Positions 297-30,224 of a stretch of 42,344 nt of DNA are shown here, one piece after another. Position 1 is the first letter of the stretch, and the number at the start of each line of letters is the position of its first letter. The notes beneath the pieces are model-generated. The model was not told the DNA's origin. It made no database searches and saw nothing but the letters and a program-made list of their open reading frames with translations. The position numbers and the translations under genes were made by a program. The DNA comes from Patescibacteria group bacterium (lineage in GTDB: Bacteria; Patescibacteriota; Microgenomatia; UBA8517): contig DATDSD010000048.1 of NCBI GenBank assembly GCA_035291405.1, forward strand, positions 1-42,344, written 5' to 3'.

Positions 297-1508
297 TTAT
301 CTTGTTAATTTTTCACTTTTAAAAATCTTATATATAATCACACCAGCCCCTCCCGCAAACAACGAATGTAAAATACTTTGTAAATTATACGGATCAAAAA
401 TTTTTTGAATAAGTGTAAATGGCGTTGGAATTAAATCAAACCAACTACTATATATTCTGTACAAAGATATCGACATTGACCTATCCTGATACAGAAGTGG
501 AATAATTGTAGCAATTACTGCTAAATAAAATAAAGGATATGATAAATACGTTTTTTTGATAGATAATATCACTACAAAAGGAGCTATCCATAAAAGCCAA
601 GCGACATGAAAATGGGAAAAAGAAAATATAATTAGTAGGGTTGTTAACCAATATTTAAACACACTTATCTTTTTATCCATTAACCAGGCAATGTAAAATA
701 GTGCAGCAAATAGCAAAAGACCAACTATTATTGACTCACCAAAACCAACTTCAAAACCAGGATTAAATATTCTTGTGGTCAGGCCAGATATTAAAGTTGA
801 CTTGATAAAAGCCTGGGACATAAATGGTAAAGATATAAGGCCAAAAGTTAAAAACGGTATAAAGCCTAATAGAAATTTCTCTTTTATATTTTTACCTTTT
901 AAAATCAAAAACGGTACGAACAGTAGGGGATATAATTTAAACCCTGCTGCTATTCCCAATGATAAAGCAGCTAACTTTAATTTATTACTCTTAACCAAGA
1001 TTAAGGATAGTAATGTAATCGCAACTGGAAAGATATCAACGTTTCCAAATGCATAAATATAATAAATAGTAAAAGGATTAAAAAGCCACAACGTAAATGC
1101 TTTTTTATCTAATTTTTTATCATCAAAGTATTTTAATAATAAAAAGGCTATAGCAAAATCAAAAATCAAATAGGGTAATTTTAATATAACAAGGTATTTA
1201 AAAATATTTGGATCTAATGTAAAAGTATTGGAGTCAGCATTGTTTAACCAGGTACCAAATGCTTTGCCCAAAAACGGGGATGAAATAGCCTGATATCCTC
1301 CCAGTGTAAAATAAGTTAATGGAAAATAAACAAACTCATCTTTCATGGAAAGATTACTTTTATTAGTTTCTAGATAGGTGTATATGTTAAAAACTCCTCG
1401 TCTTAAGAATTGGCTCTGAAAATTAAAAGTTTTTATATCAGGATGAAATATAAAAGCTGAAACCAATAATCTTAAAACTACTGCCAAAATTAGTAATTTA
1501 ATCTTCAT
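297..1508 (-). CDS. polytopic membrane protein, probable GT-C-fold glycosyltransferase (GT87/DUF2029-like by eye)
   Basis: 403 aa, hydrophobic helices throughout, no soluble domain. Segments LKLPYLIFDFAIAFLL, FNPFTIYYIYAFGNVD and GFKLYPLLF resemble GT87/DUF2029-type mannosyltransferases. 11-nt overlap with the upstream gene. Confidence 0.45.
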   Translation of the reverse strand: MKIKLLILAVVLRLLVSAFIFHPDIKTFNFQSQFLRRGVFNIYTYLETNKSNLSMKDEFVYFPLTYFTLGGYQAISSPFLGKAFGTWLNNADSNTFTLDPNIFKYLVILKLPYLIFDFAIAFLLLKYFDDKKLDKKAFTLWLFNPFTIYYIYAFGNVDIFPVAITLLSLILVKSNKLKLAALSLGIAAGFKLYPLLFVPFLILKGKNIKEKFLLGFIPFLTFGLISLPFMSQAFIKSTLISGLTTRIFNPGFEVGFGESIIVGLLLFAALFYIAWLMDKKISVFKYWLTTLLIIFSFSHFHVAWLLWIAPFVVILSIKKTYLSYPLFYLAVIATIIPLLYQDRSMSISLYRIYSSWFDLIPTPFTLIQKIFDPYNLQSILHSLFAGGAGVIIYKIFKSEKLTR

Positions 1509-3132
1509 GTTTTAATTTTACTAATAAATATAAAAATGAAAAGAGTGATATTAAATCAAAAAAAAGTCTTAAAAACGATTCTTTATATTCTATTTCAACT
1601 TCATGTTTCCCGCTTGGAACCGCTAAACTAATTTGACCATATGGTTCCCCTGACATTATATTTACTTTCTTCCCATCAACTTTAGCTGTCCAGCCGGGGT
1701 AGTTATACTTATTATAACTAAGAGTAAAATTCTCAGTACTATCTGTTTTTATTTTTGCATTAAGAGCATTTATTTCCTGAATATCAAGTTTGACTAACTT
1801 GTTATCACTAAACACTCTTGGATAAACTTTATCTGGTCTAACTATAGTTTCTTTAGGTAATCTTAAATATTCTTCCGAAGTTTTTTTGTATTCTTCACTT
1901 GCAGATAGAATAGGAATATATCTATTTATATAATAATCATCAAGTCTCCCTAGATATTCACTTGTTTTAAAGTAATTAAAGTTAAGAGCAATAGAAAAAA
2001 CAATTATGACAAGCGCTAATATTTTTTGATATTTAAACTTTGCAAAAGATATCAAAAACAAAGGACTAACCAGTGTTGTCATTGCCAAAAATCTCCAAGG
2101 GAATTGAAAATAAGGTAAAAGTGGAAGATTTCTCCAAAGATAGGCAGATCGATAATTCATCATAAAGACACTTATTAAAAAGACTAAAATTGCCCAAATT
2201 AAAATTGTTCTTTTCTCAGTATCTATCTTTTTAAATTTGAAAAAAAACAAAACTGAACCTAACCCAACCACTATTAGCCCAACAGCACCCATATAAAAAG
2301 ACATTGTGTCGTAATTACCTGGAACTGATGCCCCATACCCCCAATAGGCGACAATAAATTGCTTTAATGCAGGAAAGTGATCATAAAAATTAAAAACCGT
2401 ATCATATTTCATTAAATTACTCTCATATATTGCGGGAAACCAAAAATAAATTGACGTAAGAAGTCCTAAAAAAAGACCTTTCAAGTTCTTAATAATATAT
2501 TTCTTTTGCAGAAAAATTAAAATAATAGCAAAGGGAAAAAACATATAAGATAAAATATTGTGCGACAATATAAGTGCTGCAGAGGAAATGGCCAGTATTA
2601 CATATTTTCCTTGAATAATTGCCAAAAGAATAATTGGAAAAAATACAAAAGCCACTATCTCCCCTACACTACCCCGCACAAATATTTCCAAGGCCCTATA
2701 AGGTGCATAGACGTAAAGAATTGAACCAGCCAGAGATAATTCTTCTGACAGATAATGCTTTAATAGTTTGTACATAAAATACATTGAGAAAGGAATTGAA
2801 AGTCCAAAGAGTAATTTCATACTGTTAACCAACGAAAAACCTATCAGGTGAAACACCTCAGCGATGTAAAAAGGTAGAGGGTAAACAAAAGTAAAAAGAG
2901 GATAACCGAAACCAAAGGAGAGATCTGGAACATATCTTGGTGGAAATTGTAGCATCTTTATAACTCTATCCATTTCATATAGCCATCCAATATGCAAATC
3001 GTCTGATACCCCAAAAAAACCATTTATAAATAGATATCGAACGGCAGGTAACGATATGATTAGTACTATTAACCATATGTACTTTGAAATTATTTTTTGA
3101 AATGATTCTGTCATTTGCACTTTTTTGTCCAT
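1498..3132 (-). CDS. GT-C-type membrane glycosyltransferase, tandem paralog A1 (YfhO-like architecture)
   Basis: 544 aa. Shares with A2/A3 an acidic first-loop motif (SDDLHIGWLYEM...RYVPDLSFGFGYPLF), YAPYRALEIFVRGSVGE and FQFPWRFL. It also shares a C-terminal beta-rich soluble region (PGWTAKVDGKKV...PSGKHEVEIEYK) plus a terminal TM helix. ATG 3114 forms an ATGA overlap with the A2 stop (TGA 3111-3113) and may be the true start. Confidence 0.55.
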   Translation of the reverse strand: MDKKVQMTESFQKIISKYIWLIVLIISLPAVRYLFINGFFGVSDDLHIGWLYEMDRVIKMLQFPPRYVPDLSFGFGYPLFTFVYPLPFYIAEVFHLIGFSLVNSMKLLFGLSIPFSMYFMYKLLKHYLSEELSLAGSILYVYAPYRALEIFVRGSVGEIVAFVFFPIILLAIIQGKYVILAISSAALILSHNILSYMFFPFAIILIFLQKKYIIKNLKGLFLGLLTSIYFWFPAIYESNLMKYDTVFNFYDHFPALKQFIVAYWGYGASVPGNYDTMSFYMGAVGLIVVGLGSVLFFFKFKKIDTEKRTILIWAILVFLISVFMMNYRSAYLWRNLPLLPYFQFPWRFLAMTTLVSPLFLISFAKFKYQKILALVIIVFSIALNFNYFKTSEYLGRLDDYYINRYIPILSASEEYKKTSEEYLRLPKETIVRPDKVYPRVFSDNKLVKLDIQEINALNAKIKTDSTENFTLSYNKYNYPGWTAKVDGKKVNIMSGEPYGQISLAVPSGKHEVEIEYKESFLRLFFDLISLFSFLYLLVKLKHED

Positions 3133-4757
3133 ATCAAAAGTCCTATAAAACTAAGGATCGATAATGTATTAGCAAATGTCCTTAGGAGAGTATTTCTAAA
3201 ATGGCCCTCAACATCATATTTTCCATCTGGGAGAAAAATTGAAATTCTACCTAAAACATTGTCATGAGTAATAATATGATTTTTTCCATTAACCTCAACT
3301 TCCCAATTAGGAAAATAAAAAATTGGCATTTCAATTTGAGTATCTTTTTTAACATCAATGTTAAAGGAAAATTTATTACTTTTATTTACAAAATCATAGA
3401 TAATTGCATCTCCAGAGATAATAATTGGGTCTATCTGTGCAGCTTCTCTAGGTTCAAGTGCAGTTTTGGGCAAATAATCTAAAAGTGCCCCCTTTCTCTG
3501 ATCGTCCCAAAGTTTACCTGACAATTTTTCTGAGTCTGAAACAGAATAATATTCTCGAGGTCTAAAATATCCCCAATTCAAAAAAATCGCCAATATTATT
3601 ATTAATAAACTAATAATTTTTCTATATTTCTCCTTTGCAATAAAAACAACTACTCCCCCCAATATTGATGATGTCAAAATTGATAATGACAAAAATCGCC
3701 AAGGAAATTGGAAAAATTGTAAAATTGAAATATTCTCCCAAAAGATAGTCGATTTGTTGTGAGTCATGAAGATCGAAAATAAAAATACTGTAAATATACC
3801 TAGTACTAAAATTTTTGTTTCCTTTTTAATCTTAGTTAAAAAGATGGCAACAACTGAAACTATGGTCAACAACCAATATGGCCATCCTATTTGAAAATTC
3901 ATTCCTCCCTCGGGCCCAGGAATTGAAGTTCCATAGCCCCAAACTCTGTCTAAAAATAACTGTTTGACACTAATAAAATTTGCTCTGTAATCCAACTCAA
4001 ATCTGGTTAGACTCTCAGTTTGAACTAGATTTTTCTCTAAAAATGCAGGAAGAGTAAAAAATGCAGACATTCCAAACGCTAAGATCAAAGACAGTAATAT
4101 TGGTTTTAAGGCTTTAAATTTTCCAACCCATACCCAATAAAACATCCAAACTAAAACAATTGGAACAAAAATAACTGTCATTATGTTATGAGTTATTAAA
4201 AATAAAAATAGTGTCAAAGAAAATAGTAAGTAATTTTTTTTCTCGGAAACAATAGCCTTATAACCAAAATATAAAACAAATGGGATTATGGAAAGCGCCA
4301 AGCTTTCTGATAATGCTCCCCTGACATAGATATCTAGCGCTTTATATGGTGCAAACATATAAAGAATTGCGGATGTTAGACCGGCATATTTACCCCACAA
4401 ATTCTTGATCAACAAATACATTCCAAAACTACCTCCAATAAGTGCCATAAAGAAAAGTATCTTTGCCGATCCAATAAATCCAAAAACAAAACTTAAAATT
4501 GCACCTAAATAATAAGCTAGGGGGCCATAAAAATTAAAAAGTGGCATTCCATTTCCCCACCCCATATCAGGAACCCACCTACAAGGGATTTGAAAATCGG
4601 AAAAACACTTCCTCATCTCAAATATCCTAATTATCTGTAAATCGTCTTGATGTGAAAAGTAACCGCTTCTAAAAAGAGGCCACGAAACAAACAATCCAAA
4701 GATAAATATTACTAAAAAAGGCCAATGTTTTTTTATTGTTTCTTTGATATTAGCCAT
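3111..4757 (-). CDS. GT-C-type membrane glycosyltransferase, tandem paralog A2
   Basis: 548 aa. SHQDDLQIIRIFEM...IPCRWVPDMGWGNGMPLFNFYGPLAYY; FAPYKALDIYVRGALSE; FQFPWRFL. C-terminal FPNWEVEVNGK...PDGKYDVEGHF plus a terminal TM. 25-nt overlap with the A3 end. Confidence 0.55.
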   Translation of the reverse strand: MANIKETIKKHWPFLVIFIFGLFVSWPLFRSGYFSHQDDLQIIRIFEMRKCFSDFQIPCRWVPDMGWGNGMPLFNFYGPLAYYLGAILSFVFGFIGSAKILFFMALIGGSFGMYLLIKNLWGKYAGLTSAILYMFAPYKALDIYVRGALSESLALSIIPFVLYFGYKAIVSEKKNYLLFSLTLFLFLITHNIMTVIFVPIVLVWMFYWVWVGKFKALKPILLSLILAFGMSAFFTLPAFLEKNLVQTESLTRFELDYRANFISVKQLFLDRVWGYGTSIPGPEGGMNFQIGWPYWLLTIVSVVAIFLTKIKKETKILVLGIFTVFLFSIFMTHNKSTIFWENISILQFFQFPWRFLSLSILTSSILGGVVVFIAKEKYRKIISLLIIILAIFLNWGYFRPREYYSVSDSEKLSGKLWDDQRKGALLDYLPKTALEPREAAQIDPIIISGDAIIYDFVNKSNKFSFNIDVKKDTQIEMPIFYFPNWEVEVNGKNHIITHDNVLGRISIFLPDGKYDVEGHFRNTLLRTFANTLSILSFIGLLIWTKKCK

Positions 4758-6406
4758 ATAATTATCCCCAAACTAATTAAAGATAGATAGTTTCCTATCG
4801 TTCTTATTATTGTATCAGTTAATCTGGCCTCGATTTGATACTCCCCCTTAGTTAGTTTAAAAGTAATAAGACCATAACAAAACTTTTCGAGTCTGCAATC
4901 GTTATTGTAATGATTTACAACATTACCATCCACAGTTACCTTCATTCCTGGAAAATCAAACAATGGTAACCGAATTGTTGCATCTTCTAAAACAGTTATC
5001 TTTCCAGTTTGATAATCGCTTCCCTTTTTATAATCAACAATATCTGCCTTACCATCTAATATCTCAGGTATTGCAGGTGCTTCATTTATTGGTGGAAATG
5101 TTGCATAAATTGGCAAGTAATCAAAAATACTAATTGTCATCTGTTTTTGCCAACTAGATCCTGAGAATTTATCTGAATCTTTAATATCAAGCCAGTCTTT
5201 AGGCACAAAGAAACCTATATTAATAATGATTGCCACTAAAATTACACCTATTCCCAAAAAATATTTATATTGTTTTGAAAAATATATTGCCAATCCCCCA
5301 AGAATTGAAAGTAAAAATATTGAGATTGATAAATACCTCCACGGGAACTGCATCCACCATAGGACAGGAAGTTTGGCCCACAAAAAACTTGATTTCATAT
5401 GAATCATAAACAAAGTAAGTATTGTAGAAAAACAAAGCATTAAAGAAAGAAAAGACAATTTAGGAAATTTTTTGTAATTTTTTATTGCTAAAATTCCGGC
5501 AATTAAGCCCATCAACCATTGGACCAGACCAACAGAAAGATTTAATTTTTCATCTGGAAAACCGGAAGAGCCATAACCCCATTCACGAGATATAAATAAC
5601 TTATATAAGCTTACAAAATGAGCTCTATAATCAAAATAGCCACCAAGCATCGATTCAACATGAACAAATTCTTTTTCGAAAATAACAGGAAGTGTAAAAA
5701 ACGAAGCCAGACCAATTCCCAATAATCCAGGCCATAATAATACTGGCCATCTCTTAATTTTATTCTCAGTAATTAACCAATAAACTGCCCAAATAATTGC
5801 AATTGGTGCAAAAATTAGAGACATCAAATTGTGTGTAGTTAATAAAAGACCCAATGATATGGCAAACCATATAATATATTTTTTCTTTTCAGTTTTGATA
5901 AGCATATAAATTGCCCAAAGAATAATCGGAAAAAATGTAAAAGCCCAAAATTCACTCATAGCTCCCCTAACATAAACTTCAACTGCTTTGTAGGGCACAT
6001 ATGTATAAAGAATAGAGGAAACAAAGGCAGGCCACGACCCAAGCAAGGAATCAACAAGAACAAACATTGCCAGAGCTGAAGCGACGTAGCCAATGATGAA
6101 TAAGATTTTTACTGCGTCTATGTATTGGAACCCAATTCTGTGAAGCAATGCTCCAACATAATAGACGGATGGGGGGTAATAATTAAACTGAGGATATCCA
6201 TATCCATAACCCGCATCAGGTACCCAGCGACATGGAATTTGGGCATCTTGGAAACATTTATCCATCTCATAGACTCTAAATGCCTGTAAATCATCTTGCA
6301 TAGAGAAAAATCCTGGACGTATTAAGTTCCAACAAACAGGAATTGTAGATAAAACAACAAGAAGTATCCAAGCTAATTTTTGATGACTTTTAATGAATTT
6401 GATCAC
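4733..6406 (-). CDS. GT-C-type membrane glycosyltransferase, tandem paralog A3
   Basis: 557 aa, GTG start at 6406. SMQDDLQAFRVYEM...IPCRWVPDAGYGYGYPQFNYYPP; YVPYKAVEVYVRGAMSE; MQFPWRYL. C-terminal FPGMKVTVDGN...TKGEYQIEARL plus a TM. First gene after a 41-nt gap. Confidence 0.55.
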   Translation of the reverse strand: MIKFIKSHQKLAWILLVVLSTIPVCWNLIRPGFFSMQDDLQAFRVYEMDKCFQDAQIPCRWVPDAGYGYGYPQFNYYPPSVYYVGALLHRIGFQYIDAVKILFIIGYVASALAMFVLVDSLLGSWPAFVSSILYTYVPYKAVEVYVRGAMSEFWAFTFFPIILWAIYMLIKTEKKKYIIWFAISLGLLLTTHNLMSLIFAPIAIIWAVYWLITENKIKRWPVLLWPGLLGIGLASFFTLPVIFEKEFVHVESMLGGYFDYRAHFVSLYKLFISREWGYGSSGFPDEKLNLSVGLVQWLMGLIAGILAIKNYKKFPKLSFLSLMLCFSTILTLFMIHMKSSFLWAKLPVLWWMQFPWRYLSISIFLLSILGGLAIYFSKQYKYFLGIGVILVAIIINIGFFVPKDWLDIKDSDKFSGSSWQKQMTISIFDYLPIYATFPPINEAPAIPEILDGKADIVDYKKGSDYQTGKITVLEDATIRLPLFDFPGMKVTVDGNVVNHYNNDCRLEKFCYGLITFKLTKGEYQIEARLTDTIIRTIGNYLSLISLGIIIWLISKKQ

Positions 6407-6447: not shown

Positions 6448-6938
6448 TTACTTTTTATTCAAATCAATCTTTACTCTTACATCAAGCCTTGAATTCGGAT
6501 CATTCATCCAAACCGTTTTTGGAGTAATTTTATAAATTTTATATTTTTTACCATCAAAAACCATTGACTTAATAAACTGCATTGCTCTCTTGGTATTAAT
6601 TCCGCCATAGGGATATTCTCTTAATCCGTAAAGCTTAGCAATTCTTAATGAATCTTTTAAATTTACAGCTTCTGCAATTGCTTCAATTTGAAGTCCTATT
6701 CCTCGCCCCAAAGTTGTTGTGAATCAAAAATTGCGACTGCAACTTTCTTATTTTTGGAAATATTTTTACAATGTTCTGAAGTTGGCATTGAAACAAAATA
6801 CAAGTTCCAATCTTTATCAAAACAATAAACTACCGGAGAAATCCATGGACTGTTTCCTCCGACTGAAGCAATTGTTAGATATTGATTACCCTCAATTATT
6901 TTTCTAGCTAATCTATTTAAATCTCTAACCATGAACAT
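6448..6938 (-). pseudogene. pyridoxamine 5'-phosphate oxidase-like (FMN-binding split-barrel) gene interrupted by a frameshift
   Basis: Two adjacent ORFs (6696-6986 and 6448-6711) read as one PNPOx-like protein: ...YLTIASVGGNSPWISPVVYCFDKDWNLYFVSMPTSEHCKNI..VAVAIFDSQQL / GRGIGLQIEAIAEAV... Frames switch inside CTTTGGGGC (T3G4 run, 6701-6712). The likely start, ATG 6938-6936 (MFMVRD), forms a TAATG overlap with the stop of the upstream GT2. Confidence 0.6.
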
Positions 6939-12200: not shown

Positions 12201-12209
12201 ATTTAGAAT

Positions 12210-12218
12210 ATTATAACA
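12210..12218 (-). promoter_or_regulatory. extended -10 TGTTATAAT, 9 nt upstream of ATG 12200
   Basis: Minus strand: TGTTATAAT ATTCTAAAT ATG. Confidence 0.45.
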
Positions 12219-12239
12219 GTTTCGAATCAAACCTGTATG

Positions 12240-20723: not shown

Positions 20724-20733
20724 TTTGTTGTTT

Positions 20734-22209: not shown

Positions 22210-23671
22210 GTGTGATTCTCTCCCTTTTATCTACGGTTATACCTCCAAATTTAACCGACTCTGTAACTTTACCTATTCCATCTTGTCTATCAAGCCAAGC
22301 TTCAAGTCTTTCAGGGTGTGGTGGATCAATTTCATATAAAGTATAAAGTACTGTTGTTAATTTTTCCTGCTGTCCTAAATTTTGCCATAGAAATAAGTAT
22401 TCATATGCATATGGAATAACTGGTGGAACATAAACATCCACATTAAAGGGATTATTCTTACTGTCCGACTTAATCCAGTTAATTACAGATAGTTGATTCT
22501 TAAAAGCAATAATTTCTCCGTCATTTAAACTTTTGCCATAATTAAATTTGAAACTTTGATAGTTTTTAAAAAGGAAAATGGACATAAAAATAATTAATAT
22601 AAATTTGCCAAATTTTAACTTTGTTAAATTTATAAAAATGAATGAAAAAAACAAAATAAATATTAGATAATATCCGGTGAAATAATAATCATAAAATCCT
22701 CCCAAATTACTAACAAAGAATAAAGTACCCAAGAATGGAGCCAAAAATAAGATAAAAACTATCTTAAATCTATCTTCTTTCCAATATTTCTTAAAATTAC
22801 GGAATATATTAAAAATAAAAAGAACAAAAAAAGGCAAAAACAATAAATTACCGTTCACAAAAAACTTCGATGCAAAAATATCATAATATGTTTTTAATCT
22901 TAATATTAAAATTTGAACAAAATTGTAGGTAAATGAGTTTTCTTGAAATATAAAATTATATAAAGCACCAGATAAAACACCAGGGTGTCTTATTTCAAAA
23001 ATCATCTGAGGAAGAAATGTAAACAAAAAAGTCATCAAAGAAAGTATGAGTATTTTTAAACTTGGTAATATTTTACGGTTAATGAATAATATTAATATTA
23101 GAGCCGGAATATAATAAATTTCAGTTGCAGCACCAAAGTTTAATCCCATTCCAATTAAAAATGTAGCCAGTGGTAGAGACCAAACTTTTTTCTCTAAGTA
23201 TCTAAAAAATACCCAAACCAGTGCTATTCCAATTAATAACATTGGTGTAGGATTTGAAAGCCAACGTGATGAATTAATTATATAGCTGGAAAATCCAGCC
23301 AAAAAAGCAGCCAACAAACCCACACTTTTACCTCCTAATTTATTTCCCACATCATACAAAACATAAATTGCAAAAACAGTAATCGAAATTAAAAAAAATG
23401 ATGGAAATATAGGATTTCCTTTACCTAGGTAGTAAAATGGTGCAATTAAATAATAATACCAAGGTCCTCGAAACATCCCCGTAAAACCCATCATTGGTCC
23501 AATTAGAAACAATTTACCTTTATTGATTAAGTCCCAAATTACCAAGGCATCTCGTCCTTGGTCATACCAAAAACCTAAAAGTTCAGGTAATCTATAAATT
23601 CTTAAAAGAAATGCGGACAATAAAATGATGAGGATATTAAACCTTTTTGTTAGCATATTTCCTACACACAT
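22202..23671 (-). CDS. GT-C-type membrane glycosyltransferase, paralog B3
   Basis: 489 aa. RIYRLPELLGFWYDQGRDALVIWDLI..LIGPMMGFTG..GPWYYYL; IFEIRHPG. Alternative start ATG 23656 (MLTKRFN). Either start overlaps the nrnA end. Confidence 0.55.
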   Translation of the reverse strand: MCVGNMLTKRFNILIILLSAFLLRIYRLPELLGFWYDQGRDALVIWDLINKGKLFLIGPMMGFTGMFRGPWYYYLIAPFYYLGKGNPIFPSFFLISITVFAIYVLYDVGNKLGGKSVGLLAAFLAGFSSYIINSSRWLSNPTPMLLIGIALVWVFFRYLEKKVWSLPLATFLIGMGLNFGAATEIYYIPALILILFINRKILPSLKILILSLMTFLFTFLPQMIFEIRHPGVLSGALYNFIFQENSFTYNFVQILILRLKTYYDIFASKFFVNGNLLFLPFFVLFIFNIFRNFKKYWKEDRFKIVFILFLAPFLGTLFFVSNLGGFYDYYFTGYYLIFILFFSFIFINLTKLKFGKFILIIFMSIFLFKNYQSFKFNYGKSLNDGEIIAFKNQLSVINWIKSDSKNNPFNVDVYVPPVIPYAYEYLFLWQNLGQQEKLTTVLYTLYEIDPPHPERLEAWLDRQDGIGKVTESVKFGGITVDKRERITHE

Positions 23672-24635
23672 CTAAAACCTTCTCAACAGCTTCATTAAAA
23701 GGCAATCCTTCAATTTTAGTCGCAGAAGCGACTTTGTGGCCTCCCCCACCTAATTCTTTGGCAATTTGCGATGTATCAAAATCGGTTCTACCCCTAAAAC
23801 TCACAGTCATGTAATTTGGCTTCTCTTCAACTCCAATTAAACCAAAGTCTGTGCCGTCAACGATTGGAGCAAACAGACTTGCAGCTTTTGATTTTGCTTC
23901 GTCTAACGAATTATATTTACTAAAAATTTCATAAGGCACAAAAGACCAAGCAAATTTAAATTCGTTGTCTATTTCCATATTTAGTAACACTTGAGACCAA
24001 AATTTTAATAATTCTATTTTTTCGCTTCTATAAATTCTATTAGTAATCATGTCTTTATTGGCCCCCAACTCCATCAAAATTGATGCAATTGATAATGTTT
24101 TTGGAGTAACATTTGGATAAGCAAATGCTCCAGTATCACCAATAATTGAGGTTAGTAAACACTCAGAAATATCTTTGTCTAAACTAAATTGCCAATCTGC
24201 AAAAACATCAAAAAGGATCTCACCCACCGAAGTGGCTTTATCATCAACTAATCTAATATTTCCCTCTAATGTACTTATGTAATGATGGTCAATAACAACC
24301 GTAAAAATATTTGGCTTTTCAGAGGTATCCTCGTCTAATAAAAGCGATAAATTTGGAGTATCTAAAGTAATAAATAAATCATACTGAGAAAAATCAAATT
24401 TTTTGAATAACACCCCAAGCTTGATGTCATCATATCCACCTAAATAATCAACTTGTTTAGTAATCTGATCGCTTGGACAAATAACATCTACCCGTTTCCC
24501 CATTTTTTCCAAGACTAGCTTCATCGCCAACGTACTACCTAATCCATCAGGATCAGGGCCACGATGGCAATTGAGAAGTATTTTATTTGCCTTTTTTATT
24601 TCATCTAAAATTAATTGTGATTCTGGGTAATTCAT
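23637..24635 (-). CDS. nrnA: DHH/DHHA1 phosphoesterase (NrnA-like oligoribonuclease / pAp phosphatase)
   Basis: 332 aa. HRGPDPDGLGS, DTPN, VIDHHY (DHH motif) and LGGGGHKVASA (DHHA1 GGGH motif). Confidence 0.8.
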   Translation of the reverse strand: MNYPESQLILDEIKKANKILLNCHRGPDPDGLGSTLAMKLVLEKMGKRVDVICPSDQITKQVDYLGGYDDIKLGVLFKKFDFSQYDLFITLDTPNLSLLLDEDTSEKPNIFTVVIDHHYISTLEGNIRLVDDKATSVGEILFDVFADWQFSLDKDISECLLTSIIGDTGAFAYPNVTPKTLSIASILMELGANKDMITNRIYRSEKIELLKFWSQVLLNMEIDNEFKFAWSFVPYEIFSKYNSLDEAKSKAASLFAPIVDGTDFGLIGVEEKPNYMTVSFRGRTDFDTSQIAKELGGGGHKVASATKIEGLPFNEAVEKVLDVCRKYANKKV

Positions 24636-24656: not shown

Positions 24657-26180
24657 TTATCTTGAATGTATTAATTTGTATATTATAACACCATCAACTT
24701 CCCATTTTTCTTCAATTTTACTCCAGCCGAAATTAGCTACCTCTGCTTTAGGAGAATGTGTTGGATCACACTTAACCTCTTCCATTTCACAAACAACAAA
24801 CAATTGATTTGATATGGATTTACTGTCCCATATATCAGCATGTAGGGGTGTGTATCCTTCTTTTTCCAAAAAATAAGCGTACCCGTCTTCATAATTTCTT
24901 TCCGCCAAGACTGCCAGATTAAAGGAGGTTTCTTTTGATTCCTCAATTATTTTTGATGAAACATTTTGAGCTCTTTGAAGTTGTTTGTTTGGTGAATACT
25001 TAAGAGGAGAATTAATAATGTTAATGTAAACTACAAATAAAAATAAAAAAATCAACATTGTTTTGCCAATCTTACTTAGACCATCAAAAACTCCATCTAT
25101 GAAACCTGCTAAGAATAAAAATGGAGCAGTAAACAAAAGACCAAAATAATGATCATGTATTTCAAACTTAAAAAGACCTAAGCCAAAAAGACCAGCAATC
25201 ATCCAAATTGTCAAAGTACTAAAACCTGACGCTTCATTGGTGTGTAGTCTTTTTCTACCCAACAAAAAAAGTACCGATGGAATAGAGATAACCGCAACTA
25301 TTATCTTTCCTAGAGTTTCCATTCTTCCCGCCAATAATCTTGTTGATATTAAATTAAGAACTTCAGGTAATTTAATTACAGATGCCCAAATATTTTTGGA
25401 AAAAGCATCTTCTCCGGTAACAAAAAGTGAACTTGCTGCTTTGTAGTTAATCCAATCATGTCTTATATCAAAGAATAAAAGAGGAGACATCAAACCTAAA
25501 AAAATTACCAAGGAAATAGCTGATAATTTTATAAATCTAACAACTTTTGCTTTCTCGTTTATTTCTTGACTTTCAAAAGAAGTCTTTAAAAAAATTAAAA
25601 TCCAATAAAAGCCCAGCACAGGTGCCAGAAGTAGTCCAAAATAATGAGACTGTAATACAAAAGCATAGGAAATCGCACAGGTTAAAAGCCATTTAAAATT
25701 CTCTCTTTTCCAAACCATCCAGATTGAATAAATAGCAAGCAGTGAAAAGAAAGGCATTATGTTTGGGTTCCAAGAACTTTTGGAAAAAATTATTACAGTT
25801 GGAGATATTGCATAAAGGGTGGCAGCAATTAAACCCGCTCTTTTAGAAAACCACTTAAGTCCTACATAATAAACCATAAAAATGGTAGCAACACCTATTA
25901 ATGCAATCAAGACAGATGGGCCGACAGGAGAAAAATTGAAAAGCCAAAGAAAAGGAGAAATAAGATAATAGTAAAGTGGGCCTAGATACATGTTTCCGAT
26001 TGAAGTGCCGGGGCCAATCAACATCAAATCAAAATCAACTAAAAATCTTCTGACGATAATTGCATCTCGCCCCTCATCTCCCAAAAATGTCATATATTCT
26101 CCAATTTTGTAGAGTCTAAAAAATGCTCCAATTAATAAAATTGTAATAAGTATCGAATTTTCTTTTAGAAATTTTCTCAT
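24657..26180 (-). CDS. GT-C-type membrane glycosyltransferase, paralog B4
   Basis: 507 aa. RLYKIGEYMTFLGDEGRDAIIVRRFL..LIGPGTSIGN..GPLYYYL; FFDIRHDW. Soluble C-terminal domain. ATGA overlap with the upstream GT2 stop. Confidence 0.55.
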   Translation of the reverse strand: MRKFLKENSILITILLIGAFFRLYKIGEYMTFLGDEGRDAIIVRRFLVDFDLMLIGPGTSIGNMYLGPLYYYLISPFLWLFNFSPVGPSVLIALIGVATIFMVYYVGLKWFSKRAGLIAATLYAISPTVIIFSKSSWNPNIMPFFSLLAIYSIWMVWKRENFKWLLTCAISYAFVLQSHYFGLLLAPVLGFYWILIFLKTSFESQEINEKAKVVRFIKLSAISLVIFLGLMSPLLFFDIRHDWINYKAASSLFVTGEDAFSKNIWASVIKLPEVLNLISTRLLAGRMETLGKIIVAVISIPSVLFLLGRKRLHTNEASGFSTLTIWMIAGLFGLGLFKFEIHDHYFGLLFTAPFLFLAGFIDGVFDGLSKIGKTMLIFLFLFVVYINIINSPLKYSPNKQLQRAQNVSSKIIEESKETSFNLAVLAERNYEDGYAYFLEKEGYTPLHADIWDSKSISNQLFVVCEMEEVKCDPTHSPKAEVANFGWSKIEEKWEVDGVIIYKLIHSR

Positions 26181-26881
26181 CTTAATTTACGCCACAGGCG
26201 AAACAAATCAACGAAACTCTGTAGGATTACCTTTACATTTCTACCGGTTCCCTTTCCTTGTACCCTTGGTAAATGTGTAACAGAAATCTCAACTATTTTA
26301 AAACCGGATTTTTTTGCTTTAATCAAAAACTCAGAGGAGATAAATGCACCTCTTTCACTTTCTAACGTGGGAATTCTGTTAATTACTTTTTTACTAACTA
26401 ATTTAAAACCACAATCAATGTCATGAACATGTAAACCGAAAAGTATCATTACGGCTATTTCCCACATTCTTGAAGTTATTATTTTAAATTTACTTACTTG
26501 TCTTTTTTTGTAATAACCAATTATTAAATCAGCATTTGTTTCTTGTTGTTTCTCAAAAAATAAATTTATTTCACTAAAATCAAATTGGCCGTCTGAATCA
26601 GTAAAGATAATCCAAGGATATTTTGCATTATAAAAGCCAGATTTAAGACTTGCACCATAACCTCTATTTACTTCATGATTAATAACTCTTATTCTTTTAT
26701 CTTCACTTGAAAGTTCTTCTGAAATTTTTTTTGTATTGTCAGTTGAACCATCGTTAACAATTATAATTTCCCAATTCTCGACATATTTTAAAAGAACAGC
26801 CTTAGATTTTATAACTGTATTTTTAATATTCCCCTCTTCATTATATGCAGGGAAAAAGACTGATAATGATTTTATTTTCAT
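26177..26881 (-). CDS. polyprenyl-phosphate sugar synthase (GT2; GtrB/ArnC-like)
   Basis: 234 aa. LSVFFPAYNEEGNI...IVNDGSTDNT...NRGYGASLKSG...FTDSDGQF. Confidence 0.75.
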   Translation of the reverse strand: MKIKSLSVFFPAYNEEGNIKNTVIKSKAVLLKYVENWEIIIVNDGSTDNTKKISEELSSEDKRIRVINHEVNRGYGASLKSGFYNAKYPWIIFTDSDGQFDFSEINLFFEKQQETNADLIIGYYKKRQVSKFKIITSRMWEIAVMILFGLHVHDIDCGFKLVSKKVINRIPTLESERGAFISSEFLIKAKKSGFKIVEISVTHLPRVQGKGTGRNVKVILQSFVDLFRLWRKLR

Positions 26882-26972: not shown

Positions 26973-28103
26973 ATGGGTCGAATCAAAAAATTCATTCCTC
27001 TTATTCTCCTATCTTTAATTCCCACGCTTTTGATTTGGCTTCCATTTTACTTAAGAGTCAAGTCATTTTGGACAATTCCACTTCCACAACAGGGAATGGC
27101 AACAATTGTCGCTAACTTTGATGGACCATTATATTTAGCCGTTGCTAAAACTTTTTATGATCCTCAAAGTTTAGGGGCTAATTATCAGTTTCCCTTATCT
27201 CATGAGTATTACTCTGCACATTTTCCGCTTTTCCCAATGTTAATTAAGGTTTTTTCACCAATTTTAGGACATCCTTATTCCATGCTTTTTGTGACACTAA
27301 TTTCTTCAATAATGGCACTTTACTTTTTTTATATTCACTCACGAGAATATTTATCCAAAGAAAATGCGCTGTTTCTAACTTCTGTTTTTTCAATTTTTCC
27401 TGCTAGATGGTTAATAGTAAGATCAGTTGGATCACCAGAACCACTATTTGTAGCCTTAATTCTTGCATCAGTCTACTACTTTAGGAAAGAAAAATATTTA
27501 CTTGCGGGAATTGCTGGTTTTTTCGCCCAAATGACAAAATCTCCTGCAATTTTACTTTTCTTTGCATATTTAATTCAGATCATTATTCCTCACATCAAAG
27601 ACCTTAAAAAAATAGAGTTTAAGAAATATTTACCATTACTTTTAATTCCAGTTGGGTTATTGGTCGTTTTTACAATATATGCAGTAAGGTATGGAGATTT
27701 CTTTACTTATTTTAAATCTGGAGACAACATTCATCTTTTCTTCCCGCCATTTCAAATTTTTAATTATTCAGCCTCATGGGTAGGAACCTTCTGGCTTGAA
27801 GAAGTAATCTTCATCTACGCAATTGGGGTTTTGGGAATTTATAAGTTATATCAAGAAAAAATGACAATGTATTTTTATTTCACACTTACCTTCTTTGTTT
27901 CGCTTCTCTTTGTTGCCCACAGGGACTTACTTAGGTATGCACTTCCCATTGTACCGTTTTTATTAATTGCATTTAGAGAAATCTTAATCAAAAAAGAATT
28001 TAAAATTGTACTTGCAGTAATTATTATTCCAATTTATCTTTATTCTCTAGCCTTCATCTCACAAAATGCCATGCCAATTGCCAATTGGAATCCATTTTTG
28101 TAA
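26973..28103 (+). CDS. polytopic membrane protein, probable GT-C mannosyltransferase (PIG-V/GT76-like by eye)
   Basis: 376 aa, all-membrane. The first loop VANFDGPLYLAVAKTFYDP resembles the DG..Y..IA motif of PIG-V-type enzymes. Confidence 0.4.
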   Translation: MGRIKKFIPLILLSLIPTLLIWLPFYLRVKSFWTIPLPQQGMATIVANFDGPLYLAVAKTFYDPQSLGANYQFPLSHEYYSAHFPLFPMLIKVFSPILGHPYSMLFVTLISSIMALYFFYIHSREYLSKENALFLTSVFSIFPARWLIVRSVGSPEPLFVALILASVYYFRKEKYLLAGIAGFFAQMTKSPAILLFFAYLIQIIIPHIKDLKKIEFKKYLPLLLIPVGLLVVFTIYAVRYGDFFTYFKSGDNIHLFFPPFQIFNYSASWVGTFWLEEVIFIYAIGVLGIYKLYQEKMTMYFYFTLTFFVSLLFVAHRDLLRYALPIVPFLLIAFREILIKKEFKIVLAVIIIPIYLYSLAFISQNAMPIANWNPFL

Positions 28104-28107
28104 AAAT

Positions 28108-28800
28108 ATGGGCAAGCTTACCGGCCACCAACTTAAACAAATTGAAGTAATTAAAAAGATTGAAAAGCTATTCAATCAAAACAAAATAAGCGCCGTATCA
28201 AAAATCGATGATTATGAAAATGACCCAAGAATTTGTTTAACTAGCGTACATTTTCCATCAAAAAAACTTACAAAAATTATTGTAGCTAAAATTATTGAAC
28301 CACTACAAAAAATTGACAAGAATATATTTTACTATCCCCCAGAATCATTACACTTAACCGTTAAAAACATTCGAACAATCAATAATCCTCCGGATTTCAA
28401 AACAAACGACTTGTTAACCGCAAAAAAAGTTTTTTCAAAAGTAATACCCAAGCTCCACAAATTTAAAATTTATTATTATAAACTCGTAATTTACCCCAAT
28501 AGTTTATCTATTGTCTATACAACTGATCCAGAATTGGATTTAATTTTTTCAGAATTGGATAAAGCATTAAATAAATCAGGTTTGCCTGACAATAAATTCT
28601 ATGCAAATAATAAATATATTATTTCCAATATAACTCTTGCACGATTTTATGGTCAACCCACACCGGAATTTAAGAATGAAGTAAAAAGGATTGCGAAATT
28701 AAATATATTCGATAACTACATAATAGATAGCGTTACCTTATTAACGGCAAACGCAGCAATGAAAAATAAAAAGATTATAGGTAAATGGAAACTTCAATAA
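28108..28800 (+). CDS. 2H phosphoesterase (LigT/ThpR-like) with a degenerate second HxT motif
   Basis: ATG 28108 (MGKLTGHQ) lies 4 nt after the upstream stop; the track start 28066 overlaps the upstream gene. First motif SLHLTVKNI (CAC 28351-28353). The second motif reads SNITLARF, where the family has HITLAR (AAT 28627-28629). Confidence 0.5.
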   Translation: MGKLTGHQLKQIEVIKKIEKLFNQNKISAVSKIDDYENDPRICLTSVHFPSKKLTKIIVAKIIEPLQKIDKNIFYYPPESLHLTVKNIRTINNPPDFKTNDLLTAKKVFSKVIPKLHKFKIYYYKLVIYPNSLSIVYTTDPELDLIFSELDKALNKSGLPDNKFYANNKYIISNITLARFYGQPTPEFKNEVKRIAKLNIFDNYIIDSVTLLTANAAMKNKKIIGKWKLQ

Positions 28801-28846
28801 ACATTATCGTGGGTTTTTAAGTACATTATCAGTCTAACTATATGAA

Positions 28847-29101
28847 ATGGAGATTCCTAGGCATTGGAGACTAAAACAACAGAGGTATAGACTAATTGGG
28901 GATATCTGCAAAAATAACCATCCGGCATTTCCACCAGATGATGTCTGCAAACAATGTCCCCACGATAAAGCAATAACAGATGCAATAGCTGAAAGTGCAG
29001 CAACAGCAGAAAAAGAAATTGCTGGTATAAAGGCAAAAATACTAATTTATGAAGCAAGTCCAGATAAATACGAATCACTAGACGAAATTGTAATAATTTA
29101 A
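28847..29101 (+). CDS. small zinc-ribbon protein (DUF35/COG1545-like N-terminal module, no OB fold)
   Basis: 84 aa. IPRHWRLKQQRYRLIGDICKNNHPAFPPDDVCKQCPHD resembles the N-terminus of DUF35 Zn-ribbon proteins, followed by an Ala/Glu-rich tail. The antisense 73-aa ORF is Leu-rich low complexity. Confidence 0.4.
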   Translation: MEIPRHWRLKQQRYRLIGDICKNNHPAFPPDDVCKQCPHDKAITDAIAESAATAEKEIAGIKAKILIYEASPDKYESLDEIVII

Positions 29102-29102
29102 T

Positions 29103-30224
29103 TTACTTCTTCTTCCAAATCACCTTGGTATACATAAAATAATTGTAAGGAAGAACCATGAATAAAACGATGAAAGCCAAAACCAGAAAATCATATTTTG
29201 CCCCTACCAGTTTTGTACCGATTGGTCCTGCAATTGATTGAATGATTAAAGCTCCGGCAGAAGTTAAATTAAACTGCAAAAACTTCAAAATTGTAGCTTT
29301 CAGTCCTCTTATCTCAGAATCTTTAAAAGTCCAAATATTATTAAATACATAGTTATTAATAATTGCAAGTTCAGTTGCAAACAACCAAACAAAAAGTTCC
29401 GAAAGACCAAGATATCTAAAAAGTCTTAAAAAGACAAAATTTACAACAAACCCGGTTCCTCCCACAATTCCAAATTTTATAAACTTCTGTTTATCTTTAA
29501 TTCCTAAAACGATAACTGTTAAATAACTTACTATTAACTCTTTAATGTTGAATTTTGATTTTTCTTTACTTCTTGGTGCAAACTCCAATGGAACCTCCTT
29601 AACATTTTTTGCATTTTTATATGATTGGTATAAAAGGTCAATTTTATAAGCGAACCTATCCAAGTGCATTAATTTTTCAAGCTCTATTTTATCTAACACC
29701 CCTTTAACTTTAGTAAGCCTAAAGCCTGTTGTCATGTCGTGAATTGAGAATTTGGTTAAAACAACTCGTGCAAACAAATTACCAAAATAACTCATCATCT
29801 TGCGAGGGATTGCCCATTCTTTTGGAATCGAACCACCTGGAATGTAACGACTCCCTATAACATAGTCTGCCCCGTTTAGATAAGCTTCCACCATGGGCTT
29901 AACAAATCTTGGAGGATGTTGAAAATCAGCATCCATTTCCATAACAGCATCAGCCTTTAAGTTGCTAACTGCATATTGAAAACCCCTAACATAGGCCCAA
30001 CCAAGGCCTGATTTATCTCCTTGTTGTATAAAATGAAGGTTCTTTCTTGTTTTTGAAGCCTCCTCTACAATTTTTTGAGTATCGTCCTTTGAGTTGTTAT
30101 CAACAATTAAAAGATGCATATCTGCATTAATTTTAGGAAGCTCATTATCATAGAGTTCCTCAATCATCTTTTTAATGTTTTCAGCTTCGTTCCAAGCAGG
30201 CATAACAATTACTACTTTATCCAT
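29103..30224 (-). CDS. polyprenyl-phosphate mannose/hexose synthase (GT2) fused to a C-terminal GtrA-like 4-TM domain
   Basis: 373 aa. VVIVMPAWNEAENI...IVDNNSKDDT...MEMDADFQHPP (Dpm1/Ppm signature). C-terminal KFGIVGGTGFVVNFVFLRLF...INNYVFNNIWTF (GtrA family). Confidence 0.75.
   Translation of the reverse strand: MDKVVIVMPAWNEAENIKKMIEELYDNELPKINADMHLLIVDNNSKDDTQKIVEEASKTRKNLHFIQQGDKSGLGWAYVRGFQYAVSNLKADAVMEMDADFQHPPRFVKPMVEAYLNGADYVIGSRYIPGGSIPKEWAIPRKMMSYFGNLFARVVLTKFSIHDMTTGFRLTKVKGVLDKIELEKLMHLDRFAYKIDLLYQSYKNAKNVKEVPLEFAPRSKEKSKFNIKELIVSYLTVIVLGIKDKQKFIKFGIVGGTGFVVNFVFLRLFRYLGLSELFVWLFATELAIINNYVFNNIWTFKDSEIRGLKATILKFLQFNLTSAGALIIQSIAGPIGTKLVGAKYDFLVLAFIVLFMVLPYNYFMYTKVIWKKK

Follow-up and report, generated by a model that had tools for sequence, protein, structure and literature searches.

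What kind of glycan would call for 20 glycosyltransferase genes within 30 kb of a small bacterial genome, and on which side of the membrane would it be built? The question is raised by a contig of 42,344 nucleotides from a Patescibacteria group bacterium (assembly GCA_035291405.1, contig DATDSD010000048.1), hereafter called the window, in which positions 297-30224 are occupied by a dense glycosylation locus. Bacteria of the Candidate Phyla Radiation (CPR), or Patescibacteria, are ultrasmall, mostly uncultured and thought to be attached to hosts, and their surface chemistry is almost unknown. We consider it probable that the locus is the central part of a conserved super-locus of Candidatus Woesebacteria (Microgenomates, CPR) that encodes a greatly expanded multi-component transmembrane glycosylation system. 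The gene identities given below are homology assignments, and the order of action and the substrates are what we infer.

Extent and composition of the locus

We compared the segment 297-30224 and its flanks using a 110,763-bp composite, which was built by walking along the scaffold with exact protein matches, had zero mismatches in all overlaps, and extends beyond the window by about 42 kb on its left and 26 kb on its right. The same DNA is present in ENA entry ERZ28563683 (ANAN16-1_SAMN03842445, scaffold_99, 116,992 bp), in JGI groundwater metagenomes and in the metagenome-assembled genome GCA_036803585.1, and the source scaffold comes from a Rifle-type aquifer metagenome and belongs to Candidatus Woesebacteria. 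Individual sequences used in the comparison are denoted by L numbers and individual proteins by P numbers. Apparent strain differences to the left of g1, between L001 and L002-L004, proved to be scaffold gaps, the aligned DNA being 100% identical.

The segment holds 28 open reading frames (ORFs), of which 20 encode glycosyltransferases: 11 polytopic GT-C-like proteins, 8 members of family GT2 and one of family GT4, accompanied by one Wzx flippase and one methyltransferase. An earlier note, made from the letters of the window, had arrived at the same counts among about 28 genes, and Pfam matches, paralogy, hhalign comparisons and predicted folds bear them out. Glycosyltransferases normally account for 1-2% of genes, and a proportion of this size far exceeds what chance would give. 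All of the ORFs lie on the minus strand except g23, g24 and an 84-aa ORF at 28847-29101 (genes given below with window coordinates, TrmD apart, are on the minus strand unless stated otherwise), and gene ends mostly overlap or abut, giving an operon-like layout. GC content stays between 0.28 and 0.33 throughout the segment, with no compositional break, and tRNA and Rfam scans of the window found nothing.

The limits 297 and 30224 are arbitrary, as the locus continues to the left and takes in the rml genes on the right. Glycosylation genes run for more than 40 kb further left of the window, up to the end of the DNA obtained, and this flank adds 16 polytopic GT-C-like proteins, 2 GT2, 3 GT4, 5 methyltransferases and 3 epimerases, together with a protein resembling the flippase part of MprF (LPG_synthase_TM) and a gene in which GT2 and PMT are fused. 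To the right of the segment lie TrmD, RmlD, RmlC, RmlB and RmlA, a CAP protein, a 2249-aa surface protein, two sortases and an epimerase, and farther right only plain housekeeping genes are encoded (FtsEX, a PcsB-like protein, a release factor, tRNA-guanine transglycosylase, SecA and seryl-tRNA synthetase). From RmlA to the left end the locus spans at least 80.6 kb and 74 ORFs, with 27 GT-C-like proteins, 10 GT2, 4 GT4, 6 methyltransferases and the dTDP-rhamnose genes. The excess of extracytoplasmic over cytoplasmic transferases that had been noticed in the segment, the reverse of ordinary O-antigen/CPS loci, is stronger than was claimed, with 27 GT-C-like proteins against 14 GT2/GT4 proteins in at least 80 kb. 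The closest complete genome that we found, that of Candidatus Woesebacteria bacterium GW2011_GWF1_31_35 (CP011214.1; locus L008), is closed at only 819,458 bp, which agrees with the earlier view that so small a genome invests very heavily here; the locus, at 80 kb or more, would be roughly a tenth of the likely genome.

The polytopic proteins resemble GT-C glycosyltransferases

The 11 polytopic proteins of the segment appear to be members of the GT-C superfamily, whose donor would be a polyprenyl-(pyro)phosphate-linked sugar, judging from their co-location with three synthase-like GT2 proteins. Seven of these assignments come from Pfam, two from paralogy and two from predicted fold, and over the whole locus 18 of the 27 GT-C-like genes score above the Pfam cut-offs for GT-C families. 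Hydropathy scans gave 9-12 transmembrane (TM) segments for all 11 proteins, and the AlphaFold2 (AF2) models made for g11 and g23 are helical bundles.

At the left end of the segment, g1 (297-1508, 403 aa) is a GT87-type protein, of the family that includes PimE-like enzymes (Pfam GT87 28.9 bits, cut-off 25), with about 9 TM helices and an Asp in the first loop, in the motif 'FHPD'. Beside it, g3 (3111-4757, 548 aa) falls into the PTPS_related family (PF10131, 47.6 bits) and has 11 TM helices including a C-terminal one; g4 (4733-6406, 557 aa) is 39% identical to g3 and has weak PTPS_related and PMT_2 matches; and g2 (1498-3132, 544 aa), which has no Pfam match, shares 30% identity with g3 and g4 over its full length. 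A joint profile of g2-g4 was aligned by hhalign with the PMT_2 paralogues at a probability of 97%, over the N-terminal GT-C module, and the operon position of g3 is held by YfhO-family genes in L029 and L030. The PMT_2-type proteins are g14 (16340-17917; PMT_2 44.3 bits; 'VDE' in loop 1), g16 (18537-19913; 26.1 bits, equal to the cut-off), g18 (20734-22209; 32.5 bits), g19 (22202-23671; 39.5 bits) and g21 (24657-26180; 40 bits), with g16 a paralogue of g18, g19 and g21. In our own Pfam scans PF02366 (PMT) was also above its cut-off in g14 (30.5 bits) and g21 (26.5 bits), as well as in a 545-aa protein of L001 (38.1 bits) and a 549-aa protein of L016 (36.7 bits), and precomputed Pfam matches add a 489-aa protein and the GT2-PMT fusion.

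The remaining two proteins, g11 (described below with its operon) and g23, were compared by predicted fold: 76-77 homologues of each were aligned, AlphaFold models with a predicted TM-score (pTM) of 0.90 were obtained, and the PDB was searched with them. The minimal GT-C-like protein g23 (26973-28103, plus strand, 376 aa; AF2 pLDDT 88.9) is the most conserved polytopic protein of the locus, with 58-75% identity to its orthologues in five genome loci and 62-94% among the 120 relatives listed, 14 of which carry PMT_2 in precomputed Pfam annotation. In the Foldseek search all significant PDB matches of its model were GT-C enzymes (AglB, STT3, ALG6, ArnT, ALG9/12, PimE, PMT and Emb); transporters came up only at E > 0.3 for g23, and only at E > 0.05 for g11 and g23 taken together, at TM-scores near 0.1. 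The check that the earlier note had called for, by profile and structure searches, therefore places the polytopic proteins with GT-C enzymes and not with transporters. Searches of PDB chain sequences with three profiles (A1, A2 and A4) and with g1 and g14 singly returned nothing usable, and fold comparison alone worked.

An acidic residue in loop 1, predicted to be the first extracytoplasmic loop, is kept in every paralogue family: the PMT_2 set has an invariant Asp in 'F..D[EQS]', g2-g4 an invariant 'DD', the g23 family an invariant 'N.DGP' and g1 'HPD'. Paralogues within the genome are 22-39% identical to each other.

GT2 and GT4 proteins and putative polyprenyl-phosphate-sugar synthases

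Seven proteins of the segment are clear members of GT2 (g5, g6, g9, g10, g17, g22 and g25), and g8 is borderline. Three of them, g17, g22 and g25, appear closest to polyprenyl-phosphate-sugar synthases, in agreement with the earlier reading of three Dpm1/GtrB-like proteins. The similarity is most extensive for g25 (29103-30224), which resembles an archaeal-type Dol-P-Man synthase with a fused four-helix GtrA/DPMS TM domain (Glycos_transf_2 93 bits, GtrA_DPMS_TM 52 bits) and matches the Pyrococcus furiosus DPMS structure 5mlz over its full length (E 1e-40). Among solved structures, g17 (19917-20786) comes closest to DPMS, ArnC and GtrB (E 2e-14 to 1e-12), and g22 (26177-26881) to GtrB (sll0501) and ArnC (E 3e-12); orthologues of g22 are 73-75% identical. 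PgfS is the top NCBIfam match of both g17 and g25, below the cut-off (78 bits for g17). The putative synthases are paired with GT-C-like genes, g17 lying between g16 and g18 and g22 between g21 and g23. Two proteins of the left flank belong with this group of functions. One gene, at L026 18815-20696, unites a GT2 domain and a PMT/PMT_2 GT-C domain, synthase and transferase, in at least 788 aa before running off the end of the DNA. At L026 6204-7184, between a PMT_2 gene and a GT4 gene, the LPG_synthase_TM protein (326 aa, about 10 TM helices, 131.8 bits) is a candidate flippase for lipid-linked sugars.

The other GT2 proteins are predicted to be cytoplasmic or lie in the operon of the Wzx flippase. 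They comprise g5 (6938-7771; Glycos_transf_2 98 bits), whose best NCBIfam match is a rhamnosyltransferase at 62 bits, below the cut-off; g6 (7768-8667; 88 bits); g9 (10381-11325; 68.7 bits), which matches a rhamnosyltransferase subfamily at 76 bits, again below the cut-off; g10 (11289-12230; 72 bits); and g8 (9671-10396), which reaches 23.4 bits against a cut-off of 23.3, is 31% identical to g10 and keeps its position in L028-L030. The single GT4 protein, g7 (8664-9704; GT-B fold, Glycos_transf_1 65.9 bits), has an orthologue at the same position in L028-L030. The solved structures nearest to g10, which falls into a GmaR/SunS-like subgroup, are GmaR, the O-GlcNAc transferase of Listeria flagellin (E 5e-17), and SunS, a peptide S-glycosyltransferase (E 2e-13). 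GmaR and SunS modify proteins or peptides and are not polysaccharide GT2 enzymes; the likeness extends to g8 by its paralogy with g10.

A conserved operon joins the Wzx flippase to a GT-C-like protein with a predicted oligosaccharyltransferase-like architecture

The single flippase and the single methyltransferase reported in the earlier note correspond to g13 (14849-16315), a Wzx/MOP-family flippase (Polysacc_synt_3 180.7 bits; NCBIfam MOP flippase 125 bits), and g12 (13979-14845), an S-adenosylmethionine-dependent methyltransferase (Methyltransf_23 88 bits). They are followed by g11 (12240-13994), a 584-aa protein that we assign, from its AF2 model (pLDDT 88.7), to a putative uncharacterised GT-C family with an architecture like that of the oligosaccharyltransferases (OSTs) STT3, AglB and PglB. 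The model has about 13 TM helices, with the TM region extending to about residue 434, and then an alpha/beta C-terminal globular domain (435-584). Its best 22 PDB matches are all OSTs (human, yeast and canine STT3, AglB and PglB; E 3.6e-11 to 1e-6), followed by DPY19, AftD, AftA and ArnT, and the C-terminal domain of AglB (3vu0_B) is matched weakly (E 0.04).

The family of g11 comprises 1,585 representatives after clustering at 50% identity, and the relatives whose source is named are nearly all from Patescibacteria/CPR. It lies outside Pfam, 2 of 77 members giving a weak PMT_2 match and none of the 77 an STT3 match at E <= 1, and its profile found no PDB sequence at E <= 10, hence none of the solved OSTs. 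Loop 1 carries an invariant 'GHDG.WH'. A scan of g11 found no WW[DE] or W[WYF]D[YFW]G and no DxD, and the family consensus has no WWDYG-type motif. Since this motif defines STT3, AglB and PglB, we do not file g11 as an OST. Many members of the family (for example P0242 and P0262) are 1,000-1,160 aa long, with a signal peptide and, at the N-terminus, an extracytoplasmic domain of about 430 aa, to which no family was assigned.

The gene order around g11 is conserved. In L028-L030 the Wzx gene is followed by g11, which overlaps it, and then by two GT2 genes, a GT2-like gene and a GT4 gene. In L010, too, Wzx and g11 are direct neighbours, and in the window g12 stands between the two. Beyond the GT4 gene of the operon follow either a methyltransferase and two GT2 genes or a YfhO-family GT-C gene, and in the window g6, g5 and then g2-g4. 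In P0278 (1,639 aa) Wzx and g11 are fused into one protein, whose N-terminal Wzx part is complete and 51% identical to g13. Operon adjacency and this fusion tie g11 in function to Wzx and to a lipid-linked glycan assembled in the cytoplasm. In terms of activity, g11 may polymerise the glycan flipped by Wzx, transfer it en bloc, or use a monosaccharide flipped by Wzx as GacK/GacL do.

The locus is conserved in other Woesebacteria

Comparison with related genomes, which had been suggested as a check, showed that both gene order and orthologues are kept in other Woesebacteria. In L008, L009, L010 and L011 the genes follow in the order Wzx, g14, g16/g17, g19, NrnA-like gene, g21, g22, g23, g25, TrmD, RmlD/RmlC and, further on, RmlB/RmlA, CAP and a large surface protein, and an array equivalent to the left part of the locus is found in L014, a 593-kb contig. 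Orthologues are 45-80% identical across these loci, similar to the housekeeping genes embedded between them, the most conserved members being g23, g22, g25 and g17. Homologues bear the names of Candidatus Woesebacteria, Microgenomates and Patescibacteria.

Because synteny is conserved and orthologues (45-80% identity) are more similar to each other than are paralogues (22-39%), the GT-C expansion appears from these comparisons to be ancient and to form a stably inherited core pathway, rather than a hypervariable antigen island or the product of recent tandem amplification. A horizontally acquired island, which we also considered, is ruled out by the uniform GC content, the embedded housekeeping genes and the conserved synteny.

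Candidate acceptors of the glycan

Candidate acceptors are a secondary cell-wall or membrane-anchored glycopolymer, or the Pro/Thr/Ser-rich linkers of sortase-anchored surface proteins. Two proteins to the right of the glycosyltransferase genes are candidates for a protein acceptor. The CAP-domain membrane protein (38916-39857; CAP 78 bits) has a Pro/Thr/Gln-rich linker. The stretch 39879-42344, cut by the end of the window, encodes the C-terminal third of the 2249-aa surface protein (DUF11, SdrD_B and SpaA domains), whose full gene is found in L005 (3230-9979) with two sortases beside it. A Pro/Thr/Glu-rich linker occupies residues 36-125 of this protein, which also has a signal peptide, a poly-Thr tract and, at residue 1921, LPATG with a membrane anchor. 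Its sortase signal is internal: LPATG is followed by a TM helix and KKNKNGKNK, after which the frame runs on for about 300 residues, comprising a second signal-peptide-like segment, an Fn3-like part, the tract TTTTTT and a C-terminal TM helix. Gene calling in another sample, L006, splits it into two parts of 2185 and 74 aa.

N-X-S/T sequons are depleted in the 2249-aa protein (25 observed, 36 +/- 5 expected from shuffles, z = -2.15), and in other exported proteins their counts are near expectation. The depletion gives no support to N-glycosylation of the surface protein and makes it less probable. Glycosylation genes are known to adjoin the genes of their substrates in Streptococcus mutans, where the pgf genes lie beside those of adhesins (PMC12041528). 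The whole region studied here is collinear between species, housekeeping genes included, and we therefore give little weight to the adjacency of the surface protein.

Proposed mechanism and alternative interpretations

In the mechanism that we propose, RmlABCD together with several epimerases would supply nucleotide sugars. The operon g13, g12, g11, g10, g9, g8, g7, followed by g6 and g5, would build and flip a lipid-linked oligosaccharide, probably rhamnose-containing and methylated, which g11 may hand on or polymerise outside the membrane. Single sugars would be loaded onto polyprenyl phosphate by g17, g22 and g25, a step for which a phosphoglycosyltransferase (PGT) would not be needed, and after flipping the GT-C paralogues (11 in the window, 27 in at least 80 kb) would add these sugars to extracytoplasmic acceptors, each paralogue presumably having its own linkage or acceptor. 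The earlier note had proposed a glycan built largely outside the membrane. The GT-C array agrees with this, but the conserved cytoplasmic module for a lipid-linked oligosaccharide (Wzx, g11 and four transferases, with rml genes nearby) suggests that the glycan is not built only there.

Among the genes of the window and of the 110.8-kb composite we found no PF00953 (WecA/MraY), PF02397 (WbaP/PglC), Wzy_C, O-antigen polymerase, Wzz or ABC exporter. The absence of these functions, reported earlier for 297-30224, thus extends to flanks of about 42 kb (left) and 26 kb (right), and no standard PGT/Wzy/Wzz set lies just outside the window. The LCP catalytic domain is also absent from the 110 kb, in which only two LytR_C-only proteins occur, and the sole ABC-type item there is the cell-division ATPase FtsE. 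Structures of Wzy or WaaL are absent from the matches of the g11 and g23 models. Priming enzymes of the WecA/TagO/GacO type are usually unlinked to such clusters and encoded elsewhere, and polyprenyl-phosphate-sugar synthases need none, so a missing primer is not anomalous. Another possibility is that an AglJ-like GT2 carries out the priming on polyprenyl monophosphate in the manner of Euryarchaeota, which would explain why a PGT is not seen.

Several points weigh against the proposed system. The functions of all locus proteins are drawn from homology or from models. Among the 27 GT-C-like calls, 9 derive from paralogy, fold or sub-threshold matches only; in particular, g11 and g23 have no significant Pfam match and their families align insignificantly with the PMT_2 set in hhalign (0.7% and 8.7%), so that their GT-C status is structural only and comes from predicted models. 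No stand-alone flippase of the GtrA type occurs in the locus, the candidates being the fused TM domain of g25, Wzx (g13) and the LPG_synthase_TM protein. Within the 110 kb, finally, neither a primer for the lipid-linked oligosaccharide nor an enzyme that would attach a polymer to peptidoglycan (LCP) or to a lipid can be seen.

Could the polytopic proteins be mostly transporters or other membrane proteins, over-annotated as glycosyltransferases? Scores near threshold for g1 and g16, the four proteins of the window with no significant Pfam match (g2, g4, g11 and g23) and the lack of sequence-level matches in the PDB would fit such an explanation, but it is extremely improbable given that 18 of 27 pass the curated GT-C cut-offs, that modelled g11 and g23 match GT-C enzymes only (transporters at E > 0.05 and TM-scores around 0.1), that each family keeps the acidic loop-1 residue, and that the genes are interleaved with polyprenyl-phosphate-sugar synthases, one being fused to such a synthase. 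An ordinary Wzx/Wzy locus for a capsule or an O-antigen-like polymer, with PGT, polymerase and chain-length regulator encoded elsewhere in the genome and the GT-C proteins acting only as side-chain decorators, would account for the Wzx, the block of cytoplasmic GT2 and GT4 genes, the methyltransferase and the rml genes, all of which are usual in such loci, and the priming enzymes WecA, TagO and GacO are often unlinked. We regard it as unlikely all the same: no PGT, Wzy_C, Wzz, LCP or ABC exporter is encoded in the 110 kb, GT-C-like proteins outnumber cytoplasmic transferases about 2:1, the locus is conserved at housekeeping level with housekeeping genes embedded in it and the same GC content as its surroundings, and the slot beside Wzx is filled by the GT-C-like g11 in every genome examined.

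A more serious contender, although we think it less likely than the proposed system, is that the locus serves mainly protein O-glycosylation, with PMT/PMT_2/YfhO-like GT-C enzymes moving sugars from polyprenyl phosphate to Ser/Thr linkers of secreted or sortase-anchored proteins such as the 2249-aa and CAP proteins, as do actinobacterial Pmt, streptococcal Pgf and GtrB/PgtC2. Scores for PF02366 pass the cut-off not only in g14 and g21 but in four more paralogues, g17 and g25 both match PgfS first in NCBIfam, and the Pro/Thr linkers, the poly-Thr tract and LPATG with two sortases are found beside the locus, an arrangement comparable to that of the S. mutans pgf genes and their adhesin substrates (PMC12041528). 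On the other hand, known bacterial systems of this kind use one to three GT-C enzymes, not 27, the PMT_2 family also glycosylates teichoic acids, polysaccharides and lipid A, and adjacency may reflect general collinearity, TrmD and other housekeeping genes being equally syntenic. It is very unlikely, in our judgement, that g11 is a true OST of an archaeal Agl-like or Campylobacter Pgl-like pathway, in which a DPM1-like GT2 would prime on polyprenyl monophosphate, cytoplasmic transferases and the methyltransferase would extend, Wzx would flip, g11 would transfer the glycan en bloc to Asn, and PMT-like GT-C enzymes would finish it as AglS does. The 22 best structural matches of g11 and the weak match to the AglB C-terminal domain speak for such a pathway, as do the archaeal-DPMS-like g25, the matches of g17, g22 and g25 to AglJ and haloarchaeal Dol-P-hexose transferase models (50-55 bits), the absence of a PGT from 110 kb and a gene set that we take to parallel AglJ/D, AglG/I/E, AglP, AglR, AglB and AglS of Haloferax volcanii. 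They are opposed by the missing WWDYG-like and DxD motifs, by the lack of Pfam STT3 in 77 family members and of any sequence match to solved OSTs, and by the sequon depletion of the giant surface protein; moreover, Foldseek ranks OSTs first for g23 too, a protein of 376 aa with no C-terminal domain, and part of the g11 ranking must therefore be generic to GT-C folds.

A bolder reading can be formulated, which we offer as speculation and rate as rather unlikely. The g11 family would be an unrecognised bacterial OST-like enzyme that transfers a Wzx-flipped oligosaccharide en bloc, the acceptor being a protein or the cell wall; priming, as in Euryarchaeota, would be on polyprenyl monophosphate and the task of a DPM1/AglJ-like GT2; and the array of 27 GT-C members would be a bacterial counterpart, in a genome of less than 1 Mb, of the elaboration that takes place within the endoplasmic-reticulum lumen or in mycobacteria.

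Other genes in and beside the locus

Two housekeeping-type genes are embedded in the locus at positions kept in other Woesebacteria: g20 (23637-24635), a DHH/DHHA1 NrnA-like phosphoesterase (DHH 53.9 bits; NrnA 77 bits, below the cut-off) whose position is kept in L008-L010, and TrmD (30267-30923). ORF g26 (30236-30589, 117 aa) is most likely spurious, as it is antisense to TrmD, its apparent conservation follows TrmD, and it is uncalled in every source. A small serine hydrolase-like protein is encoded by g15 (18078-18521; Ser_hydrolase 61.9 bits), and g24 (28066-28800, plus strand, 244 aa) has no Pfam or NCBIfam match and is absent from L008-L010. At 6448-6986 lies a PNPOx-like gene with a frameshift near 6700, its ORFs of 96 and 87 aa aligning jointly to an intact 152-aa paralogue in L022. 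GT2 and PNPOx genes are paired twice, beside g5 and at L022 12267-13438, where the pair of PNPOx and another GT2 is followed by an SDR gene. In the midst of the glycosylation genes, L022 13457-15004 encodes a 515-aa protein whose VKOR domain (residues 12-134) is fused to PyrD, a quinone-dependent dihydroorotate dehydrogenase (279 bits).

The dTDP-rhamnose genes encode RmlD (31172-32065; RmlD_sub_bind 169 bits), RmlC (32062-32640; dTDP_sugar_isom 117 bits), an RmlB-like dehydratase (35855-37747; GDP_Man_Dehyd 240 bits) and an RmlA-like nucleotidyltransferase (37744-38625; NTP_transferase 100 bits). The RmlB-like protein is 630 aa long, the dehydratase occupying residues 1-300 and about 330 additional C-terminal residues giving a faint DUF2271 match; this long form is kept in L008 and L011, and the version in L010 has 332 aa. 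Between rmlA and the CAP gene lies an 84-aa ORF (38649-38903) with three predicted TM helices, called in all metagenome copies and matching no family. Two LytR_C-only proteins with no LCP catalytic domain, of 219 aa (L027 7598-8257) and 215 aa (L027 9324-9971), lie on either side of the gene for tRNA-guanine transglycosylase, about 17-20 kb beyond the right end of the window.

Comparison with known glycosylation systems

The building blocks of the locus are all of known kinds; what is undescribed in the literature that we searched is the scale, the conserved organisation and the GT-C families of g11 and g23. A search for CPR, Patescibacteria or Microgenomates together with GT-C, GT39, oligosaccharyltransferase or mannosyltransferase found no description of this type of locus, and one Microgenomates genome is recorded, without analysis, as having '29 glycosyl transferases' (PMC7143001). 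That a lineage of about 0.8-1 Mb keeps at least 80 kb of conserved glycosylation genes implies an elaborate surface glycan that is central to its biology, and the organism probably builds an unusually elaborate glycan of an undescribed kind. The compact operon of Wzx, g11 and four transferases is a unit that could be tested in glyco-engineered Escherichia coli, and the families of g11 and g23 would widen the known sequence space of GT-C enzymes, one of them with an OST-like architecture.

Systems in which a GT-A synthase, a flippase and a GT-C transferase act together are known in principle (PMC8035078). Gram-positive bacteria combine CsbB/GtrB-type GT-A enzymes with a GtcA/GtrA or Wzx flippase and YfhO/GtlB/GacL-type GT-C enzymes, as in CsdAB/CD/EF of Lactococcus lactis and GacI/J/K/L of Streptococcus pyogenes. 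The Woesebacteria locus resembles them in having GT2 synthases beside PMT_2 and YfhO/PTPS_related GT-C-like genes, a Wzx-type flippase in the cluster, rhamnose genes adjacent as in streptococcal rhamnopolysaccharide loci, and no priming enzyme in the cluster (PMC8035078). The Gram-positive systems, however, have their GT-A/GT-C pairs, one to about four in number, dispersed over genomes of 2-4 Mb, whereas here 27 GT-C-like proteins are encoded in one locus of a genome likely smaller than 1 Mb, with far fewer synthases than GT-C-like proteins and with no stand-alone GtrA, ABC transporter for a rhamnan backbone or LCP ligase.

Streptococcal protein O-glycosylation (PgfS/PgfE/PgfM1/PgfM2; GtrB/PgtC2) resembles this locus in that sortase-anchored adhesins with Ser/Thr-rich regions adjoin the genes of a GT-A synthase, of GT-C enzymes and of an epimerase (PMC12041528), but it employs 2 GT-C enzymes against 27 here, and the PgfS scores are far below the equivalog cut-offs. 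With STT3/AglB/PglB and the archaeal Agl pathways the similarities lie in the architecture predicted for g11 (about 13 TM helices, a C-terminal globular domain and a loop-1 Asp), the Wzx-like flippase, the cytoplasmic transferases and methyltransferase, and the DPM1/AglJ-like GT2. The differences are that g11 has no WWDYG motif, STT3 Pfam match or sequence similarity to OSTs, and that the candidate acceptor shows no enrichment of sequons.

The earlier note had seen the closest resemblance in actinobacterial arabinogalactan, lipoarabinomannan (LAM) and protein O-mannosylation. PMT, PMT_2 and GT87 matches and the DPMS-like synthase sustain this likeness, but no Emb/Aft (Arabinose_trans, AftA) Pfam match occurs in the window, AftA and AftD being distant structural matches only, and the mycobacterial system is therefore an analogue and not of the same family. 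It also differs in that no UbiA-type phosphoribosyltransferase or DprE1 was recognised here, that the organism is a CPR bacterium with mostly PMT_2-type paralogues, and that its GT-C count is higher in a genome about five times smaller; Mycobacterium tuberculosis has roughly 15-20 GT-C enzymes. As a mechanistic parallel, the assembly of mycobacterial LAM and arabinogalactan from two or three lipid-sugar donors still seems the closest. In the pathways for lipomannan, LAM and arabinogalactan (Ppm1, PimE/GT87, MptA-C, EmbA-C and AftA-D), as in the system proposed here, a large glycan arises outside the membrane through many GT-C paralogues that draw on few polyprenyl-phosphate donors, methyltransferases are abundant, and both a GT87 member (g1) and a polyprenyl-phosphate-mannose-synthase-like protein (g25) have their likely counterparts.

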